41,397 nt of DNA from a virus (IMGVR_UViG_3300020045_003743:1-41397), one strand, 5' to 3'. Positions 32 through 41,397 are shown, counted from the first letter of the stretch. The notes: generated by a model from the letters alone, not told the origin. Program-made: numbers and translations.

Positions 32-86
32 GAAAAACTCGAATACAGCTGATTTAAGTAATGACCTGTATTTTGGCTTGGATTAG
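1..86 (+). CDS. 3' end of the nucleotidyltransferase-like CDS that starts at 40856 and wraps the origin
   Basis: In-frame continuation ...ESKAKLIEALKNSNTADLSNDLYFGLD* with stop TAG at 84-86. Confidence 0.85.
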   Translation, partial: ESKAKLIEALKNSNTADLSNDLYFGLD

Positions 87-107
87 TTCTTATGAATGAT
101 AATCGAG

Positions 108-121
108 CAATGCACCATAAC
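108..121 (+). repeat. Right inverted end of cassette 5 (CAATGCACCATAAC)
   Basis: Complementary to GTTATGGTGCGTTG at 40817-40830 with one G.T pair; no hairpin follows. Confidence 0.8.
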
Positions 122-152
122 TATTAGCTTGGACTTATAAATGTATTACAAA

Positions 153-10196: not shown

Positions 10197-12968
10197 ATGC
10201 CAAATAATAATAGTATTGATTTAATCGTTGGAAAGCAAGCGATTGAGGGATTAGAGCAGCTTATTTCTAAGTTAGGAATGGGACAAGAAGCTATATTAAA
10301 AATGGCAGACGCTTATTTAATTTTAGATAAAAATTCTAAAATAAACACAAAATCAGCATCAACAGCTAATACGGCTGCAATGTCTCAAATGAATAAAGAG
10401 ATACAAGAGCAGGCGGTGGCTTATAATGCAGTTGGAACGGCTATAACCAAAGTAACGGCAGTTAGAAAAGTAAACAACAAACTAACGGCAGAAGAAAGCG
10501 TAAACCAAGCTATACTTAATAAAAACGCAATAGAACACGCTAAGAGTGTTTCTCAAATGGTAGGAAACTATCAAAAATTAAACATAGAACGCAGAAAAGC
10601 ACAAACAGTATTAGCCGATTTACTGAGTGCCGAAAATAGAAATTCAGCAGCGATAAAACAAGCGCAAAAAGACTTTGATTTATTAGATAAAAAAGTAAAA
10701 GCGGTTAATGCTTCAACTAAAAACTTTTCTTTAAATGTAGGGAATTATAGGAGTGCATTTAACGGGATAGGCAGTAGTATGACTTCTTTTGCTAGTGCGT
10801 TTGGAATTATTGGCGGTGCGGCTGGTTTAGCAATGGTTACAAAGGATATGTTTGAGCAAACAAAGGCTTTAGAGTCTTTGGATTTTGCATTAAAAACAGT
10901 TACCGGAACACAGCAAAACTTTACAGAAACACAATCCTTTTTAAGTAGGATTTCAGAACAATACGGGGGCGAAATAAATACCTTAACGAGTTCTTACATT
11001 CAATTTTACGCTTCGGCTAAAAACAAACTAGCAGGAAAAGAAATACAGGATATTTTTGAGAGTATTTCAAAAAGTGCTGGAGTTTTAGGATTAAGCACTG
11101 AAAGACAAGGAAAAGCTTTTTTAGCCTTAAACCAAATGATGTCAAAAGGCACTATTCAAGCGGAGGAATTAAGAGGTCAATTGTCAGAGGCATTACCTAA
11201 TGCAATGGGTATAATGAAAAATGCAGTTCAGGTATTAAATCCTGAAATGAAAGTAACCGAAAAGTTAATCGGTGAAATGATGAAAAAAGGCGAGCTTTTA
11301 AGTGCGGAAGTATTGCCAGAGTTTGCCCGTCAAATGGAAAAATCATACGGGATTGAAAATGTAACCAAAGTAAATACTTTAAATGCTTCGGTTGCAAGGT
11401 TAAGCAATGGATATAAAGAGTTTGTGCGTAGTTTTAGTGAGGGCGAAGGAGGTATTAAAACATTCTTTCAGTTCTTAGTTGATGGGGCAAAAGACGCACT
11501 AAGCCAACTTACAAGATTAAATAGTTCTTGGGATACCTTATTTAAAAAGGCAGGAATGAAAGGGCAAGAGTCAGGTAAAAGTATATTTCAACAAAGACTG
11601 GAGCAAGGAAAAGGAACAGGAACGGATGCGGAAATAGCAGCATCAATCAGGGCGGTAGCTGAAAGAGACTACAAAATAATAAAAGGCGCGTACAACGAAA
11701 ACGAAAAGAAAATTAGAGAGTTTAATCCTTATGCTATCAATTTTGGAGAAAGCGGAAAAGATTTAAAATTAAAAAAAGAGGAATTAAACAGACAATTACA
11801 AGAACAGGCTGCAATAATTAGAGAGTCAAGAAGTGCTGGAGTTGTCACCTCGGTTAGTCCAGTTGAAGTAGTGGTAGAAGAAACAAAAGCTATAAAAGAC
11901 AACACAAAAGCAGTAAAAGAAAACAAAAGGGAAAAAGTTGAGGGCGTTGGAATGGTTGGAACGGTTGACGTAAAAGATAGCGCACTGGAACGCCTTAAAA
12001 TGCTTAAAACGGCTTTAGAGAAAACAAGAGACGAAACGGCAAAAAATGCCACTGAATTTGTACAGTTTAATAAATCTATTGACGATGTAAACGAAGCTAT
12101 TGACGTATTAACAAAACCTATCACGGTTGATATTGATATTAAAACACCTACTGCAAAATTAGACAAAGTTAAAACGGATTACAAAGATACATTTGATGCA
12201 ATAGCGGAAGCGGCACAAAAAGGAGCTGCAATAATCGCAGACTTCAACGATATGAATTTTAACAATGAATATCAAAGATTGTCAGACCAAAAAGATATGG
12301 CTTTAAAATTCGCTGGAGACAGTGCAGAAGCTAAATTAAAAATAGAAGCAGACTATGAAAAGAAGCGTAAAGAAATAGCTAATAGAGAAAACAAAGCGAA
12401 ACAAAAACAGGCTATTTTTAATATTGCTATTGATACAGCTCAGGCAATTATGGCAACGGTTGGTAAAACTGGTTTTATGGGATTGCCTTTGGCTTTAATA
12501 TTAGGTGCGTTAGGTGCGGCACAAATCGCAATGGTAGCAGCTCAAAAGATACCACAATATTTTAAAGGAGGTACTCACGACGGGGGTTTAATGCTTGTTA
12601 ATGACGCCAAAGGTTCTAACTATCAGGAAACTATTGTAACTCCAGACGGTAAGATAATGCAACCAACGGAAAGAAACGTCTTAATGGATGCTCCAAGCGG
12701 TACGCAAATTTTCACGCCTGAACAATGGCACGAAAAACAACTGTTTGAAATGATGCAGGGTAAAGGAATTGCAATGACAAACAATTACGCTAAAAGCAAC
12801 GGTTTGACTTATGAGCAAATGGACGCCATTATAGGTAAACACTTTGCAAACATCACGACAAACACAACTATATTAGATAAAAACGGGTTTCAGTCTTTCA
12901 GCTCAAAACGTGGTAATATCACGATACAGAACAATAATAGAAGTCAAGGGATCGGATTTAGTGTTTAA
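10197..12968 (+). CDS. Tape measure protein
   Basis: 923 aa, helical; ALNQMMSKGTIQAEELRGQLSEALP tape-measure domain motif; hydrophobic segments. Confidence 0.93.
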   Translation: MPNNNSIDLIVGKQAIEGLEQLISKLGMGQEAILKMADAYLILDKNSKINTKSASTANTAAMSQMNKEIQEQAVAYNAVGTAITKVTAVRKVNNKLTAEESVNQAILNKNAIEHAKSVSQMVGNYQKLNIERRKAQTVLADLLSAENRNSAAIKQAQKDFDLLDKKVKAVNASTKNFSLNVGNYRSAFNGIGSSMTSFASAFGIIGGAAGLAMVTKDMFEQTKALESLDFALKTVTGTQQNFTETQSFLSRISEQYGGEINTLTSSYIQFYASAKNKLAGKEIQDIFESISKSAGVLGLSTERQGKAFLALNQMMSKGTIQAEELRGQLSEALPNAMGIMKNAVQVLNPEMKVTEKLIGEMMKKGELLSAEVLPEFARQMEKSYGIENVTKVNTLNASVARLSNGYKEFVRSFSEGEGGIKTFFQFLVDGAKDALSQLTRLNSSWDTLFKKAGMKGQESGKSIFQQRLEQGKGTGTDAEIAASIRAVAERDYKIIKGAYNENEKKIREFNPYAINFGESGKDLKLKKEELNRQLQEQAAIIRESRSAGVVTSVSPVEVVVEETKAIKDNTKAVKENKREKVEGVGMVGTVDVKDSALERLKMLKTALEKTRDETAKNATEFVQFNKSIDDVNEAIDVLTKPITVDIDIKTPTAKLDKVKTDYKDTFDAIAEAAQKGAAIIADFNDMNFNNEYQRLSDQKDMALKFAGDSAEAKLKIEADYEKKRKEIANRENKAKQKQAIFNIAIDTAQAIMATVGKTGFMGLPLALILGALGAAQIAMVAAQKIPQYFKGGTHDGGLMLVNDAKGSNYQETIVTPDGKIMQPTERNVLMDAPSGTQIFTPEQWHEKQLFEMMQGKGIAMTNNYAKSNGLTYEQMDAIIGKHFANITTNTTILDKNGFQSFSSKRGNITIQNNNRSQGIGFSV

Positions 12969-16286: not shown

Positions 16287-16697
16287 ATGGAAGCAAATGA
16301 ATTAAGAATTGGAAATTATATTTTAAAATCATTAAAAAGCGGTAATGGAAGAAAAATAAACGATAAAATTGGAGTTCAAGATATTGTTAGAATTTATGAA
16401 AACACAGGTTCTTTTAATTATGAGTCTATCCCATTAACAGAAGAATGGCTATTAAAGTTTGGGTTTAAAATAATTGATGATAATCCAAAACAAAAACCAC
16501 AATACAAAGGAGATATTATATTTAAAATATTAGATTTTGAATTTTCTAATTCAGACAAATCAAATAATAATAACGGTTTTTATTGTTATGAAATTAATAA
16601 CGGAGATACAATAATAAACTATGTTAATCAACTTCAAAACCTATATTTCGCATTAACAGGCGAAGAATTATTAATAACCAACACAAACAACTTATGA
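16287..16697 (+). CDS. Hypothetical protein (ELRIGN...LQNLYFALTGEEL type), paralog of 36196-36555
   Basis: Three conserved blocks shared with 36196-36555. Confidence 0.75.
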   Translation: MEANELRIGNYILKSLKSGNGRKINDKIGVQDIVRIYENTGSFNYESIPLTEEWLLKFGFKIIDDNPKQKPQYKGDIIFKILDFEFSNSDKSNNNNGFYCYEINNGDTIINYVNQLQNLYFALTGEELLITNTNNL

Positions 16698-26881: not shown

Positions 26882-28048
26882 TTACAAATCAGGACTTTTA
26901 TCCATTATTTCCTTTCTGTTTATTTCGTTTTGTTTAGTGACATAAATCAAAGTAGTTTCTTTTTTTGAATGTCCAAAAACTCCCTGTATAGCATCTAAAC
27001 TTATCCCGGCTTCATACTTTTTATTAGATCCAAATTTCTTCATTGAATACATTGTAATTTCTTTAAATCCAAGTCCTTTTTTTACGATAGTTTCCCATCT
27101 TCTTGTTGCTGTATCTCGGTTTATGTGTGTAGGTGCGGGGAGAAAGTCGGGCAAAAACTGATTTTTACCCCTGTTACCGATTGCAGGCTCTTTGAAACTC
27201 CCAAATAAATAATAATCTTTAGGCAGTTTGTCGAATTGCATATTAATTAAATGCTCTTTTAGATACTTGTTTATGGGTAATGTCCTGTATTTTTTTCTAC
27301 CCTTTGTATTTTTTGGCAATAACTGAATTATGTTATTATCCATATCAATCATATTTAATTGAATATCTAATATTTCAGTCGGTCTGATCCCTAAATCAAA
27401 AATCAATCTAATGTAATTGTAAAAATTAGGATGGTTTTCTATTAATTCCTTTTTAATAACTTCCATCTGTTTGTCACTTGCAGGAACGTGCGCAATACTT
27501 TCCTCAACACGTAAATTTTTAACTTTAAACGCTGGGTTATCTTCTATTATATCGAACTGGATTAACTCGCTTAAAATGGCTTTAAAATGATTCAAATGTT
27601 TATTGTGTGCCTTGTTGCTCCAGCTATTTAACTCTTTCGCTTTTTCCATTATCAACTTAATATGGATTCTTTTCGTGTCGACAATATTCAAGTGCGAAAG
27701 TCCGATATTTTTAATAGCGGTTTCTAAAAAGTTTAACGATCCGTTATAACCGGAATATGTTTTGTTAGATATGTTTGGTTTCTTCTTTTCTAAAGCAAAT
27801 TTTAAAGCATCTATTAAATTTAGATCACTTTGCTTTTTTATGATTTCGGGAATGTTTGGATTCCAGCCTGATTTCAACCTGTCGTGGTACACATCACATA
27901 AAATCAAAAATTGCCTTTCACGTTCTTTGAGGTCGTGTATTCTGTTAAGTTCGTTTTTGCGTTGGTATAGTTTGCCGTTGTATCTGAAAAACACAAACCA
28001 AGTACTAGAAGATTTTGAAAGTTTGGGAACTGTAAATTTAGCTTTCAT
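26882..28048 (-). CDS. int: Tyrosine integrase
   Basis: GIRPTEI, YSMKK (HxxR variant), FGHS...TLIY; N-terminal arm-binding and core-binding regions; adjacent attP. Confidence 0.92.
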   Translation of the reverse strand: MKAKFTVPKLSKSSSTWFVFFRYNGKLYQRKNELNRIHDLKERERQFLILCDVYHDRLKSGWNPNIPEIIKKQSDLNLIDALKFALEKKKPNISNKTYSGYNGSLNFLETAIKNIGLSHLNIVDTKRIHIKLIMEKAKELNSWSNKAHNKHLNHFKAILSELIQFDIIEDNPAFKVKNLRVEESIAHVPASDKQMEVIKKELIENHPNFYNYIRLIFDLGIRPTEILDIQLNMIDMDNNIIQLLPKNTKGRKKYRTLPINKYLKEHLINMQFDKLPKDYYLFGSFKEPAIGNRGKNQFLPDFLPAPTHINRDTATRRWETIVKKGLGFKEITMYSMKKFGSNKKYEAGISLDAIQGVFGHSKKETTLIYVTKQNEINRKEIMDKSPDL

Positions 28049-29933: not shown

Positions 29934-30191
29934 ATGACAAGATTAAAAACTTTACAAAATCGTTACGACAGATTACTTGAAGCGAATAATACACATCATT
30001 TCACGCAGTCTGGTAACGTTAGGATTGACAAATACTATGCTTGTTTACTTTATATCAAACGTCAAATTTCAAACGAGCAAATGAAAGTTATTACAGTTAA
30101 CAACAATCTTAAATCTAAAGTTCGTCAAGGGTTTTTAAATCCTCAAAACGGATTTACAATGTCAGATTTAAGGCTTTTAACACAGCCGTAA
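29934..30191 (+). CDS. Hypothetical early protein
   Basis: First ORF after the promoter. Confidence 0.6.
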   Translation: MTRLKTLQNRYDRLLEANNTHHFTQSGNVRIDKYYACLLYIKRQISNEQMKVITVNNNLKSKVRQGFLNPQNGFTMSDLRLLTQP

Positions 30192-35110: not shown

Positions 35111-35695
35111 ATGGCAGTAGGTAAAAAATCATTTGTAGCTTATGCAGATTGGAAAAACACATTTGACGAGTTGCCAAATGAAGAAGCAGGAGCATTAATA
35201 AAACACATTTTCGCATACGTAAACGATGAAAACCCGGAGAGTGATAGTGTTCTAATAAGAGCAATATTTGCTAACATAAAAGCCACTTTAAAACGTGATT
35301 TAGATAAGTGGGAAAATCAATTACAACAAAGAAGTGAGGCAGGAAAGAAAAGCGCAGAAATACGAGCGTTAAACAAAATCAACGAGCGTTCAACGGTCGT
35401 TGACGAATACGTACGAAATTCAACTGATAGTGTAAGTGTTAGTGTAAGTGATAGTATAATAACATCAACACAGATAATAAAATTTGATGATGCTGTTAAA
35501 ATTTGTCTTTTTGATGATGAATATTCTAAAGATATAGAAAGAGCTTATAAAATACCAAGAGATAAAGTTAGATATGCTTTAACAGACTTTCAAAACCATT
35601 GTAAAACAACGGGAGATAATCAAGATAAAACACTAAACCAATTTAAAAAACATTTTACAAATTGGGTACGAGTTAAAAAAACAATGACAACGTGA
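35111..35695 (+). CDS. Replication initiator-like protein (DUF6291-type N-terminus)
   Basis: KKSFVAY.DW...L..EEAG.LIK.IF.Y...RSEAGKKS, SVSVSVS linker, HFTNW C-terminus. Confidence 0.75.
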   Translation: MAVGKKSFVAYADWKNTFDELPNEEAGALIKHIFAYVNDENPESDSVLIRAIFANIKATLKRDLDKWENQLQQRSEAGKKSAEIRALNKINERSTVVDEYVRNSTDSVSVSVSDSIITSTQIIKFDDAVKICLFDDEYSKDIERAYKIPRDKVRYALTDFQNHCKTTGDNQDKTLNQFKKHFTNWVRVKKTMTT

Positions 35696-36195: not shown

Positions 36196-36555
36196 ATGAT
36201 AAAAGTAAATGAATTAAGATTAGGAAATTTAACAAGCGCAGGAGTTGTAAATGAAATACTCCAAGACTGTTTTTATGTTCACGATGGAGAAAGTAGTTTA
36301 AAAAACACTTGGTTTAATATACAGCCTCTTCCAATATCTAAAGAGTGGCTGTTGAAGTTTGGATTTTTTGAAAATATAAATCATAATCCATCTTGGCAAT
36401 TAGATGTAAAATTAGGTTTTTCTATTTGGGGTAGAATCGGAAAAGGATTTAATGTTTTTGTAGATTCAGACGAAATAGGTAATCCAATAAAATACGTTCA
36501 TCAATTACAAAACCTATATTTTTCATTAACAGGCGAAGAATTAACAACTAACTAA
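36196..36555 (+). CDS. Hypothetical protein, paralog of 16287-16697
   Basis: NELRLGN, EWLLKFGF and YVHQLQNLYFSLTGEEL blocks. Confidence 0.75.
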   Translation: MIKVNELRLGNLTSAGVVNEILQDCFYVHDGESSLKNTWFNIQPLPISKEWLLKFGFFENINHNPSWQLDVKLGFSIWGRIGKGFNVFVDSDEIGNPIKYVHQLQNLYFSLTGEELTTN

Positions 36556-37739: not shown

Positions 37740-37798
37740 AATCCGGCAAGATTGAATTTATCCCCCTTGTCACTTGCCGGTACTTGGGGGTTTTTTTT
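37740..37798 (+). ncRNA. Kissing-loop terminator leader C, upstream of the cassette array
   Basis: Loop CGGCAA is complementary to terminator loop TTGCCG. Confidence 0.6.
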
Positions 37799-37868
37799 AT
37801 TTCGGCTGCTGAAATATAGCTGTTGTTATATTCTCGGCTTTTTTTACTAACAAATAAAAATATATAAT

Positions 37869-38030
37869 ATGGAAGCACTATTAATTTTATCGATATTGGT
37901 AATTGGATTGTTAATTTATTTTGCAATAAATAACTGCAAAATAGAATTAAGATATAGAAATATACTACTAGAAGAACAAAATAAAATACTTAAAAACATA
38001 CAAAATGAAAACACTAAAAGAGCAAATTGA
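37869..38030 (+). CDS. Cassette 1: 53-aa membrane protein (not in ORF track)
   Basis: MEALLILSILVIGLLIYFAI hydrophobic helix. Confidence 0.55.
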   Translation: MEALLILSILVIGLLIYFAINNCKIELRYRNILLEEQNKILKNIQNENTKRAN

Positions 38031-38226
38031 GGAAGTAGATTTAATCCAAACAGGTTATGAAGATTTTTATATGAATTCTGATAAAATAGTTGAAGTGACA
38101 GAAAACTATTTAAATGAAAAAATAGATAAATTAATACAAAAAATAGAAGGAGAAACTTTAGCTCATTATGCTTATGAAGCAGTTATAGGTATGCTTGAAG
38201 ATTTAAAATATCAAGAACAAGAGTAG
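38005..38226 (+). CDS. Cassette 1: acidic hypothetical protein
   Basis: 73-aa ORF ending just before the cassette right end. Confidence 0.6.
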   Translation: MKTLKEQIEEVDLIQTGYEDFYMNSDKIVEVTENYLNEKIDKLIQKIEGETLAHYAYEAVIGMLEDLKYQEQE

Positions 38227-38254
38227 CTTTGGTTACAAAGTTGCTCAAGCTGGA

Positions 38255-38385
38255 ATATAACGTCCTGCGGCTTTGTGCAGGCGGGAAAATAAAACCCGAA
38301 TAATTAAATTAATCAATAATAATAAAAATATACCAAATGACTGAATTAAAAACTGATGCCCGCTTGCTAAAAACCGCTGTTATGC
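38255..38385 (+). repeat. attC-like site 1
   Basis: ATATAAC-gtcct-stem 38267-38285/38359-38377-t-GTTATGC. Confidence 0.8.
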
Positions 38386-38642
38386 CTCGTTTTTTTTGCA
38401 AAATATGTAATACGCACACAGGATGTAGTTATTATAATTTTGGTGTTTTGTGTGACGAAGAATTAAAATTTAAAAATAAAATTATGGAAACTTTTTACAG
38501 TAAGATTGATAGAAGATTGAAAGAGTTAAAACAAAAAAGAGAATTAGTAAAAAAATCTAATTTTTTAAACATTAACAAATCAGTTGAATTAAGAATATTA
38601 GACAGATGTATTGATGAATTAAACAATTTATTAGATAAATAA
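38337..38642 (+). CDS. Cassette 2 ORF starting inside attC-like site 1 (alternative start 38484)
   Basis: ATG 42 nt before GTT; CxxC...C...C segment. Confidence 0.55.
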   Translation: MTELKTDARLLKTAVMPRFFCKICNTHTGCSYYNFGVLCDEELKFKNKIMETFYSKIDRRLKELKQKRELVKKSNFLNINKSVELRILDRCIDELNNLLDK

Positions 38643-38645
38643 TTT

Positions 38646-39521
38646 ATGAAATTACAAGATAATAAAAATATATTTTGCTCCGTTTCGGCAGGTTATTCAA
38701 GCGTAATGATGGCAATTAAGATAAAAGAGTGGTATCCAGACCATAATATTATTTATGCAATGGCTAACGTATCAAAAGAAAGATCGGAAAGTTTAGATTT
38801 TATGAATAAATGTGATAAGTATTTCGGATTAAATATGACTTGGATAGAAGCTGTTTTTAATATGAAAAGCGGGGACGGTGTGGATTTTAAAATAGTTTAT
38901 TATGATGAATTAAAAAGAGATGGAGAAATATATGAGCAAGGAATAAAGAAACTAGGAATAGCATCAAAAATTAATCCTTGGTGCAATAGAGATATGAAAA
39001 TAGTACCATTGAAAAAATTCGCAGATAGCATTTTCGGATTAAATAATTATTCTATTGCGGTAGGACTTAGATCTGATGAGATGGATAGAGTAAAAGAGGC
39101 TTATCTAACTAATAATACTTTTTATCCTTTACTAGACAACGGAATCACAACTAAGGATAGAAATAAATTTTGGAAAGACAAACCAATACAAATAACAATT
39201 CCGGCTTATAAAGGTAATTGTGATATGTGCTTTAAGAAGTCAAACAGAAAGTTAATGACAATATTAAATGAAGAACCAAATATTATTGATTGGTGGGAAG
39301 AAATGACTATTAAGTATTCTAAAATTCCAATAGAAGGGAAAGACGCATATAATTATTATGCAGAAAATGGAGGAATGAATTTTTTCAGGAGCAATCTAAG
39401 TATTCCAGAATTAGTTAATATGGCAAGTGAGCCATTTAGAAAAGCAAATGACGAATACGTTTATGAAAATGATTTGTTTGATGTTGAGGAAGATTGCGGT
39501 TCTGGATGTGTAATTTTTTAG
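38646..39521 (+). CDS. Cassette 2: PAPS-reductase-like (PP-loop) protein
   Basis: SVSAGYSS, WCNRDMK, GLRSDE..R, GNCDMC and C-terminal CGSGC motifs. Confidence 0.8.
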   Translation: MKLQDNKNIFCSVSAGYSSVMMAIKIKEWYPDHNIIYAMANVSKERSESLDFMNKCDKYFGLNMTWIEAVFNMKSGDGVDFKIVYYDELKRDGEIYEQGIKKLGIASKINPWCNRDMKIVPLKKFADSIFGLNNYSIAVGLRSDEMDRVKEAYLTNNTFYPLLDNGITTKDRNKFWKDKPIQITIPAYKGNCDMCFKKSNRKLMTILNEEPNIIDWWEEMTIKYSKIPIEGKDAYNYYAENGGMNFFRSNLSIPELVNMASEPFRKANDEYVYENDLFDVEEDCGSGCVIF

Positions 39522-39543
39522 CACATAATTTCTGTAAAATGAG

Positions 39544-39674
39544 GCATAACGTTTGTCGCTTGTGGTAGTTGGGAAAAGGAAGCCCGAAACCTCGATTAAT
39601 CACTAATTTTTAAAAGTACAAAACAATGAATAAATTAAAGACTGAAACCCAATTACCACAAGCGATTGTTAGCC
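39544..39674 (+). repeat. attC-like site 2
   Basis: GCATAAC-gtttg-18-bp stem 39556-39573/39648-39665-tt-GTTAGCC. Confidence 0.85.
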
Positions 39675-40294
39675 GTCGTTCTTTTCGGATTGGAGAGCTT
39701 GTTAAATTTAATGTTATATCAGATGATTCAGATTATGCTTCTAATTGTTTTGGAGTAGAATCACAAAATGATTGGTTTGACATACAAGTATATCCCGAAG
39801 AAGTATTTGGAGAAATAGTTAAAAGAAATACTATTGAAATCATATATACCGATGGTAAACGTTCTGGAAAATTCTTTAAAATAAAAAATGGAATAATTGA
39901 AAACGAAGTAAATAAATTACTTCAAAAAAAATCAGAATACGATATATCTCTATCTCGAATATTTGATGGTAGTGATTTGAAAACGATTAAAGATTTTAAA
40001 AAAATAACAACAATTCCATTTATACAATTAACATCTTTAAGTAATAAAGGAAGTGTAGTAAATCCACCAAAAAAGAACGTATTAGTTCAAATAAGAAGAC
40101 CTTATGAATTAGGTTCTAAATTACTAGGATATTCAAAATACGAAGACGGAAAATGGAGTGATTTAGAAGACGTAGAGAACAACAGTGAACCAAAAATAAT
40201 TGACAATAATTGCTGGTGGTTTGCTGACTACAAATATGATACAAAAAGAATTTTCATAAACGGAAAAGTTTTCGTCGAAGATAGCGGTTTTTAG
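39626..40294 (+). CDS. Cassette 3 hypothetical protein; start codon lies inside attC-like site 2
   Basis: 222 aa with no internal Met; stop codon overlaps the cassette right end. Confidence 0.7.
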   Translation: MNKLKTETQLPQAIVSRRSFRIGELVKFNVISDDSDYASNCFGVESQNDWFDIQVYPEEVFGEIVKRNTIEIIYTDGKRSGKFFKIKNGIIENEVNKLLQKKSEYDISLSRIFDGSDLKTIKDFKKITTIPFIQLTSLSNKGSVVNPPKKNVLVQIRRPYELGSKLLGYSKYEDGKWSDLEDVENNSEPKIIDNNCWWFADYKYDTKRIFINGKVFVEDSGF

Positions 40295-40300
40295 AATGAC

Positions 40301-40432
40301 GGCTAACGTTTTGCTGGTAGGCGATGTGGTGGAGTGAAAAGCCAAAATACCGAGATTCAAGACAAATCTCGCAAAATTTACCAAACTTTAAATTAAGCCG
40401 AGTGCCACCATATTGCTTACCAGCTGTTATAT
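40301..40432 (+). repeat. attC-like site 3
   Basis: GGCTAAC-gtttt-20-bp stem 40313-40332/40405-40424-t-GTTATAT. Confidence 0.85.
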
Positions 40433-40478
40433 TCTCGGCTTTTTTTCTCATAATTATTAATTAAAAATACTAAATAAA

Positions 40479-40646
40479 ATGGAAAAAATACAATACGGAC
40501 AAGTAGTAACTGCTGATTTTTCAGAAAACACAATCACATTTGAAATGGATGAATATTTTACAATTTGTGCTGGAGAATTTGCGATTGTTACCGTTAAAAC
40601 TTTAGACCAAAAAATGAAATTAGAAGCTTTTTTAGAAACGTTATAA
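40479..40646 (+). CDS. Cassette 4: 55-aa hypothetical protein (not in ORF track)
   Basis: TAAATAAAATG start context; MEKIQYGQVV...FLETL*. Confidence 0.6.
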   Translation: MEKIQYGQVVTADFSENTITFEMDEYFTICAGEFAIVTVKTLDQKMKLEAFLETL

Positions 40647-40690: not shown

Positions 40691-40823
40691 ATATAACGTC
40701 CTGCGGCTATGCGATGGTCGGGAAAAATAAATCCCGAACTTCAAATTTATCCTAAAATAACCAAGTACAAACTGATAATTAAATTAAAAAACTAACCCGA
40801 CTATTGCATAACCGCTGTTATGG
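40691..40823 (+). repeat. attC-like site 4
   Basis: ATATAAC-gtcct-20-bp stem 40703-40722/40796-40815-t-GTTATGG. Confidence 0.85.
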
Positions 40824-40855
40824 TGCGTTGTGGGTCGCTAAAACAAAAAGTTGTT

Positions 40856-41397
40856 ATGAATTTTATTGAACGCCCGAAAGAAACATTTAACAAAGTACGC
40901 TTTTTAGATTATTATATGGAATGCCACAAAGGTTTTATCGCTGGGGGTTGTTTCAAAAATATATTTAAAAATCAAAAAATAAAGGATTTGGATATTTTCT
41001 TTGAGAACGAAAAAGACTTTTTAGAAGCTGTTGAACATTTTAAAAGTAATGAAAATTACATTTTATCTTATGAAAACGACAATACAATATCGTACAAAAA
41101 TAAGAACACAAATATCAGAATTGAACTAATAAGAAATACTTACGGAACCGCTGAAGAAATTATTGCGAAGTTTGATTTTAGTATTACAAAATTTGCCTAC
41201 GCAAGAAAACAAGAACCCGAAGGAGTCATTTATTACAATTTACTGGTAGATACTTTCTTTGAAGATATGACAAATAACAAACTTGTTATTGATGGAGATT
41301 TACTTTATCCTATAAGCAGTTTTGAACGTTCATACAGATACCGAACTTATGGGTTTGGATTATGCAAAGAAAGTAAAGCAAAATTGATTGAAGCATT
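40856..41397 (+). CDS. Cassette 5: Pol-beta-superfamily nucleotidyltransferase-like protein (198 aa; wraps to 86)
   Basis: FIAGGCFKNIF...KDLDIFF (GG...DxD) and FDFSI motifs resembling CCA-adding/poly(A) polymerase head domains; missed by the ORF track because of the contig break. Confidence 0.78.
   Translation, partial: MNFIERPKETFNKVRFLDYYMECHKGFIAGGCFKNIFKNQKIKDLDIFFENEKDFLEAVEHFKSNENYILSYENDNTISYKNKNTNIRIELIRNTYGTAEEIIAKFDFSITKFAYARKQEPEGVIYYNLLVDTFFEDMTNNKLVIDGDLLYPISSFERSYRYRTYGFGLCKESKAKLIEA
41367..41397 (+). repeat. 31-bp direct terminal repeat (identical to 1-31)
   Basis: Exact match to the start of the window. Confidence 0.95.

Follow-up and report, generated by a model that had tools for sequence, protein, structure and literature searches.

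Whether a recombination site can supply the start codon of the gene that follows it, and whether the order of genes in an array would then act as an expression switch, as an earlier note on this DNA had proposed, is the question raised by a cluster of small genes in a phage genome. The window analysed here is the whole phage record IMGVR_UViG_3300020045_003743 (41,397 nt), which encodes terminase, portal, capsid, tape-measure and integrase, and whose terminal overlap of 31 nt indicates that the record is circular. The phage is temperate and Flavobacterium-type, and we infer a host from the phylum Bacteroidota, because like sites occur mostly in Bacteroidota genomes among the matches listed. 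The reading that we regard as highly probable is that of an integron-like array in a temperate phage, in which the unit would be a site plus the following gene, with the predicted start codon in the loop of the site and the first ~15 residues in its right arm.

The array belongs to a run of small accessory genes ending the rightward gene block and contains four attC-like hairpin sites of 125–127 nt each, which begin with TAACG and end with TGTTA (Table 1). Before the leftmost body, A, lies a site-like right arm whose left counterpart is absent, and ORF E crosses the 31-nt terminal overlap to reach its stop at window 84–86. We infer that TAACTATTAG (118–127) after body E is the insertion (attI-like) end of the array; the ORF found after it in the window is a 60-aa frame (153–335), and no recombinase is encoded there. 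Upstream of the array, window 37743–37822 holds nested inverted repeats with a G-run and a T-tract, which are terminator-like or resemble a regulatory RNA, and the ORF at 35111 is preceded by a similar inverted repeat. Two copies of phrog_10066 are located far apart in the genome, at window 16287–16697 and 36196–36555.

Table 1. Features of the cassette array and the phage integrase, in window coordinates.
Feature	Position	Strand	Description
Leftmost body A	37813..38261	+	two ORFs, 37869-38030 and 38005-38226; body D has related ends
Site S1, head of cassette B	38258..38382	+	attC-like hairpin, TAACG...TGTTA
ORF B1, 101 aa	38337..38642	+	predicted start at S1-loop ATG; second ATG 38382
Body B 5' terminal inverted repeat	38379..38393	+	14/15 complementary to 39536-39550
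ORF B2, 291 aa, second gene of cassette B	38646..39521	+	PAPS-reductase-like (phrog_424)
Body B 3' terminal inverted repeat	39536..39550	+	ends in S2 TAAC (putative crossover end)
Site S2, head of cassette C	39547..39671	+	loop with A-rich initiation region, ATG 39626
ORF C, 222 aa, single Met	39626..40294	+	residues 1-15 from S2
Body C 5' terminal inverted repeat	39668..39682	+	14/15 complementary to 40293-40307
Body C 3' terminal inverted repeat	40293..40307	+	overlaps stop codon; ends in S3 TAAC
Site S3, head of cassette D	40304..40429	+	AAC, without loop ATG at -42
ORF D, 55 aa	40479..40646	+	own ATG, strong context
Site S4, head of cassette E	40694..40820	+	ATA at -42; frame closed by TAA
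ORF E	40820..41397	+	phrog_4400, weak nucleotidyltransferase match
Body E 3' terminal repeat (13/15), then TAACTATTAG	107..127	+	non-hairpin DNA
Phage integrase	26882..28048	-	context; outside the array-associated recombinase family

The comparison set was collected with search patterns built from the sites of this window, which over-represents the site families of this phage; viral contigs yielded 75 + 43 loci in two pattern scans, and a pattern scan of genome contigs gave at least 128 stretches (126 loci) of ~370 estimated. A structure-only detector reported 572 sites in 245 sequences (1.77 Mb), compared with 1 site in 482 kb of shuffled DNA. After exclusion of duplicates and of sites outside the length or bulge ranges, 442 sites were retained, 258 viral and 184 genomic, the genomic ones among the matches listed, with short sites (~50–80 nt) outside the set. 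Independent viral cassettes numbered 226. Gene orientation was called with a crude test that miscalls short genes and that called window S3 antisense.

Site S1 displays a 4-nt bulge after the left TAAC, a stem of ~19 bp and an A-rich loop, and its + strand corresponds to the bottom strand of attC. Folded as DNA, the + strand beats the − strand in 4/4 sites (z −1.7 to −3.6), and S2 folded as RNA reaches z −4.5 with its ATG in the loop of the centroid structure. The TAAC and GTTA cores pair in the hairpin on stems of ~19 bp and match the R/Y consensus (RYYYAAC / GTTRRRY) loosely; neither extrahelical bases near L'' nor an unpaired central spacer of ~5/6 nt appeared in these folds, whose dominant geometry is 5 versus 1 unpaired bases on an uninterrupted stem. 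The loops are 46% A. The bodies are bounded by 15-bp inverted repeats with 11, 14, 14, 11 and 13 of 15 positions matching in A to E, respectively; in viral and genome loci, these gene-specific repeats reach 11 nt past the core (match 0.55–0.88) and then fall to background. Position 7 of the repeat is a near-invariant mismatch, G opposite T on the + strand, with a match of 0.01 in 144 viral bodies and of 0.00 in 67 genomic bodies (among the matches listed). The stop codon of the preceding gene often falls at the TAA of TAAC (70 of 231 viral sites) or at −12, the edge of the terminal repeat (54 of 231). An Rfam search returned 0 matches, and a blastn search of S1 and S2 against 50,697 GenBank phages returned none. 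A promoter within the loop was considered and rejected, the motif TAnnTTTG being present on the gene strand of 5 of 258 viral sites. Short site forms (~45–80 nt) were also observed in L281 (NC_028924), at 30012–30056, 38035–38090 and 38879–38936, and in L275, at 2872–2951, each of which precedes a gene with its own start.

An integron cassette consists of a gene followed by its attC site and is moved by IntI. The downstream gene was sense to the TAACG→TGTTA direction at 190 of 249 viral sites (16 antisense, 43 unclear), whereas it was antisense at 120 of 141 genomic sites (12 sense, 9 unclear; among the matches listed), so that the site lies downstream of its gene on the coding strand in chromosomes, and the arrangement is reversed in phages. 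Viral pairs with a common downstream but not a common upstream flank kept the same site loop in 25 of 34 cases, and genomic pairs of this kind in 15 of 21, as against 0 of 7 viral and 0 of 4 genomic pairs with a common upstream flank (genomic pairs among the matches listed), while 1.2% of random pairs reach the threshold. Counted as independent viral clusters, the site was kept with the downstream gene in 16 of 19 and with the upstream gene in 0 of 7. The array ends, located by their terminal repeats and examined with a profile test, are likewise asymmetric: a site-like arm stands before 144 of 146 body 5' ends but after only 152 of 194 body 3' ends, the other 42 of 194 running into plain DNA. 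The array of the window also has its plain end on the right, where body E ends at the TAAC of 118–121 with non-site DNA beyond. Linkage and array-end asymmetry together argue that site and following gene form the unit, with exchange at the left TAAC, and the linkage data show a gene and one site moving together, as in a gene cassette.

Further copies place the boundary more closely. In locus L263, gene C (91% protein identity) has an S2-like site in front, while the left flank and the next site differ, and contigs of runs X9 and X14 (one study) link the loop of S2 to gene C and depart from the window sequence beyond 40308. Shares in the sequencing runs were at most 0.10, the runs listed included no RNA run, and the runs examined held no contig spanning the whole array of this phage. 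Site identity to the downstream partner is ~0.97 from position 11 and is at background upstream of TAAC; positions 5–10 after the left TAAC match the downstream partner at 0.57–0.89 and the upstream partner at 0.36–0.64, which could be heteroduplex overlap or a mutation hot spot, and since they follow neither flank fully, the crossover is placed near the left TAAC, not to the base. The breakpoint therefore maps from the left TAAC up to +10, and the GTT at the right end, at first labelled the crossover, is not where the cassette-moving exchange maps. This position is compatible with recombination at the bottom-strand 5'-AAC-3', the place of attC recombination according to the portion of PMC5027507 available, and the forward oligos given for bottom strands in the available part of PMC9892861, those of the aadA7 control and of three phage sites, have the form TAACG...TGTTA. 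The phage layout would then be the classical attC rule viewed from the other strand.

A smaller number of events involve the other end of the site. The same gene stands behind a different site in 4 of 19 viral clusters (9 of 34 viral pairs), and in these swapped pairs identity breaks exactly at TGTTA. Among 43 viral site pairs that are at least 95% identical, the downstream DNA is different in 24 and the same in 19, and the upstream DNA is the same in 1; near-identical sites with different genes, together with the swapped pairs, indicate that the GTTA junction is not fixed. The frame is preserved in both swapped gene families with long frames from the site ATG. Site swaps at GTT appear to replace leaders and to be rarer than cassette moves, and, as read from these alignments, they would be the surviving part of the order-switch idea, acting on an evolutionary and not a switching time scale. 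Sites 96–98% identical were seen between viral L077, L101 and L081 and chromosomal L141, L160, L204 and L219, with the genes of the viral copies antisense, which would mean either that host and phage arrays have exchanged DNA or that the viral contigs include host sequence.

We put forward more tentatively, as a possibility we would not bet on, that the hairpin is a reusable start-codon adaptor of a non-IntI, XerA-like cassette system, in which a second reaction at GTTA joins the site to unrelated genes, removes or bypasses their native start and writes the 15-bp repeats; if so, the arrays would record cassette creation in the act and offer a direct assay for integron-type cassette making. Another reading, in which both site ends recombine at comparable rates, sites are free adaptors, bodies are separate modules and later selection accounts for the frame match, would explain the gene-specific terminal repeats with their near-invariant position-7 mismatch, the occurrence of one site before many genes and the swapped clusters, but it is improbable in view of the strongly asymmetric linkage (16 of 19 versus 0 of 7) and the asymmetric array ends.

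With the unit thus taken as a site plus the following gene, the start codons can be considered. The ATGs at 38337 and 39626 each lie 42 nt before the G of GTT (38379 and 39668) and give the leaders MTELKTDARLLKTAV and MNKLKTETQLPQAIV, and the 222-aa ORF C translates with no other Met, all as the earlier note had described; the first 60 codons of ORF C contain no in-frame GTG, TTG or CTG, with ATT at codons 14 and 22 and ATA at codons 31 and 53. The gene after S1 has an extra ATG at 38382, directly past GTT and in a weak context. The −42 position was rightly given as AAC in S3 and ATA in S4, while the in-frame TAA of S4, described as following directly, comes six codons later. The cassettes after S3 and S4 do carry ATGs of their own, at 40479 for D and at 40820 (weak context) and 40856 for E. 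Gene D lies outside the GTT frame, and an S3 ATG at 40324, in the stem/left arm, opens a 46-aa frame through GTT (40324–40464) that ends 15 nt before gene D.

Across the 226 independent viral cassettes, 129 have a frame open for at least 60 codons from GTT and 97 have no long frame through it. An in-frame site ATG is present in 87 of the 129 open frames, compared with 57 of 258 control frames (Fisher p 6e-18), which leaves 42 open frames without one. Bodies lacking an ATG in their first 30 codons number 39 of 129, some of which are related methylases, and 36 of the 39 are supplied with an in-frame site ATG, against the 26% expected from a viral site drawn at random. On the coding strand of chromosomal arrays, the in-frame site ATG is found in 4 of 29 cases versus 7 of 58 control frames (among the matches listed). 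Eight different genes follow the ten sites most similar to S1, and a 1-nt indel within this family tracks the gene frame in 10 of 10, with the ATG at 42 nt for frame 0 (6 sites) and at 41 nt for frame 1 (4 sites); one of three looser members fits the rule and two do not, and all ten genes also have an ATG within 1–15 codons. DNA-methyltransferase-like N-termini, as judged by eye, are frequent among the site-led viral genes.

On an initiation profile trained on 420 ordinary viral starts, whose own median score is 2.8, in-frame site ATGs reached a median of 3.9 (taking the best of each site, n = 82) and out-of-frame loop ATGs one of 0.7 (n = 60); the S1 and S2 ATGs rank at the 84th and 80th percentiles, and the ATGs directly after GTT at the 22nd and 9th. 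Flavobacterium johnsoniae is described, in the excerpt of PMC6847099 available, as initiating without Shine-Dalgarno pairing and preferring A at −3, −6, −12 and −13, and S2 has all four of these (A at −14 to −11, −6 and −3) and S1 two. In L263 (25–148, 103–771), the site ATG is ATC with a stop upstream and gene C intact, so that the ATG is lost in some copies or another codon can take its place; this gene C may be a silent copy or use a non-ATG start. Taken together, the site likely supplies the start codon and the first ~14–20 residues. That cassettes may be start-less holds in so far as many bodies lack a start of their own and probably take one from the site; dependence on whichever site is shuffled in does not, because a site that is part of the cassette of its downstream gene carries the start codon along on reordering.

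The homologs of ORF C fit this reading, since leaders of the site type vary and the conserved sequence begins after Val/Leu, the pattern that the earlier note had proposed to look for. Of 16 homologs, judged on protein sequence alone, nine have leaders with site-like endings, in two frames, two have other short starts and five begin at a Met at about position 19–20; in three phage homologs (40–43% identity) with their own Met at ~19–20, no site was detected nearby. Ordinary phage genes occur both free, with their own Met, and as cassettes with a site leader. Leaders of the B1 homologs also vary before VMPRFF. The structure model of ORF C has pLDDT 68.5 overall, with residues 1–17 below 50 and predicted to be unstructured. 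The family has no Pfam or PHROG match, Foldseek gave no viral match for the model at E ≤ 0.001, and the best ESM Atlas value was 0.80, with a sub-threshold ADP-ribosyltransferase lead at 0.76–0.77.

The idea of a crossover at the right GTT, by which each gene would carry off the site downstream of it, take its start from the preceding one and be switched by array order, draws on several true observations, namely that the site ATGs are real, that near-identical sites precede different genes in 24 of 43 viral pairs, that swapped pairs break exactly at TGTTA and that ORF C and B1 homologs carry many leaders. It is nevertheless very unlikely, and order as a switch should be dropped: the site stays with the downstream gene (16 of 19 versus 0 of 7 clusters) and follows the upstream gene in 0 of 11 pairs and in 1 of 43 near-identical viral pairs, the site-less array end is on the right and not the left, and a random site would serve 26% of the start-less bodies against the 36 of 39 actually served. 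The single frame after GTT that such a switch had been expected to leave was not found either, three frames being used 63, 48 and 18 times in the 129 viral cassettes. As remote is the explanation that loop ATGs are unused, that translation begins at an ATG or another codon within the gene (in ORF C, the ATT of codon 14 or 22) and that A/T-rich loops yield the leaders as by-products, for which the ATC of L263, the unconserved leader with its low-confidence model and the A-rich loops speak, but against which stand the 36 of 39 start-less bodies served where 26% would be expected, the frame-tracking indel, the strong initiation scores of in-frame and not out-of-frame loop ATGs, and the control-like level of coding-strand site ATGs in chromosomal arrays (among the matches listed).

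No protein in five Bacteroidota genomes passes the TIGR02249 cut-off (265). The host recombinases associated with arrays score 201–222 bits, have 20 residues in a span where IntI4 has ~62 and are ~42 residues short relative to IntI4, and have NF040815/XerA as their nearest family; the available parts of PMC8138268 and PMC4889954 take this stretch, inserted in the catalytic domain, as diagnostic of IntI. In three of eight host regions fetched around the best matches (L255, L258 and L261, the last with an array of 16 sites and a recombinase at 10228–11268), genes reading in the same direction come after the recombinase, each with a site behind it, and no site at threshold was found in the examined part of L256, L257, L259, L260 and L262, some of which ended at a contig edge. 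Viral contigs encode relatives too (34–43% identity): in each of 12 loci, spread over 11 contigs, the gene stands at the right-hand array end and shares the strand of the cassette genes, and genome-locus matches lie on the same side in 10 of 11 (among the matches listed). The phages that encode such a XerA-like enzyme themselves, beside the right array end, are L001, L008, L014/L082, L016, L023 and L035, as well as L048, L052, L069, L079 and L092. Adjacency thus points to a XerA-like tyrosine recombinase without the IntI insertion as the likely enzyme. A tblastn search (E<1e-20) found no relative of it in the window, which is therefore no complete integron with IntI, and a host enzyme acting in trans or a lost gene would account for this. 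With four attC-like sites and no IntI-like gene, judged independently of IntegronFinder's covariance model, the array has the composition of a CALIN.

The integrase of the window is an ordinary phage integrase with no tblastn match (E<1e-20) to the array-associated family and is an unlikely cassette enzyme. TAACTATTA stands directly before the recombinase in four of five viral loci inspected, and it lies at the end of 4 of 41 arrays (background 31 of 7218), but most array ends differ. A Pc promoter reading from the attI end is not apparent, as the genes point toward the insertion end and a sigma-70 scan, whose model does not cover Bacteroidota promoters, stayed at chance level (20 versus 21.7).

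Under the preferred reading, cassettes would leave and enter arrays through recombination of single-strand hairpins, at the left TAAC or a little within it, with a XerA-like recombinase lacking the IntI insertion supplied in trans by the host, and new cassettes would enter at the right, promoter-distal end. Read-through transcription of the phage would cover the array, and ribosomes would start in the unstructured A-rich loop without Shine-Dalgarno pairing, as in this phylum. Site and gene would travel together, so that order leaves the start unchanged, and a rarer exchange at the GTTA end would join a site to a new gene, only joins with an in-frame start persisting.

Compared with integrons, as presented in the accessible parts of PMC5027507 and PMC4889954, the phage array likewise has genes between imperfect TAAC/GTTA palindromes of which one strand folds better, sites that travel with one neighbouring gene, and probable growth from one end, the end beside which a tyrosine recombinase lies in related arrays. 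It differs in that the gene is antisense to the classical polarity, so that the site precedes it, the folds have a 4-nt bulge in place of single extrahelical bases, complementarity of the body ends extends 11 nt past the core, and the recombinase lacks the IntI insertion. Site-borne starts have been described, in the portion of PMC8876359 available, for ORF-11, ORF-17 and ORF-18 of attI1 and for short attC ORFs, which aid cassettes without good signals; the phage sites resemble them in carrying a translation start within a recombination site. Those known ORFs help the next cassette through coupling or re-initiation, in a position-dependent way (same portion of PMC8876359), whereas the start in phage sites is fused in frame to their own gene and is independent of position; the S1 and S2 frames enter the gene without a stop, so that coupling of the ORF-11 type is not seen.

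Phage CALINs, which are attC-like clusters without an integrase, often with DNA methyltransferases, are reported in excerpts of PMC9892861, including Polaribacter phage P12002L. P12002L_attC1 has the same TAACG-bulge-stem-TGTTA plan in a short form and precedes a methyltransferase gene, and, as the one site of this plan with a published assay, it was the only one of six that IntI1 failed to recombine according to those excerpts, which make no mention of start codons in sites or of gene inversion. Protein-coding attC sites have been engineered as linkers (PMC7439510, consulted in part), and the phage sites, like these, fold as DNA and encode a peptide, with the difference that they are natural and include the initiation region. 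The mostly open-access literature searched yielded no account of inverted cassettes starting in their own site, or of this Bacteroidota system.

Site-borne starts, phage CALINs and engineered coding attC sites are thus known already, and what is added here is the indel that tracks the gene frame, the asymmetry of the array ends, the 15-bp repeats of the bodies and their fixed mismatch, the free and cassette forms of one gene, and the test rejecting the order switch. The genesis of cassettes is a long-standing open question, and one site family heading at least eight genes with matching frame, together with the free and cassette gene forms, offers a handle on it. Annotators should be warned that such N-termini may be site-derived. 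A start built into the site means that the same DNA has to serve as a folded recombination substrate, as a ribosome-recruiting region and as coding sequence. Set beside the known integrons, a large Bacteroidota family would appear, on sequence grounds, to use a simpler recombinase, and its phages to reverse the gene and build the start into the site.
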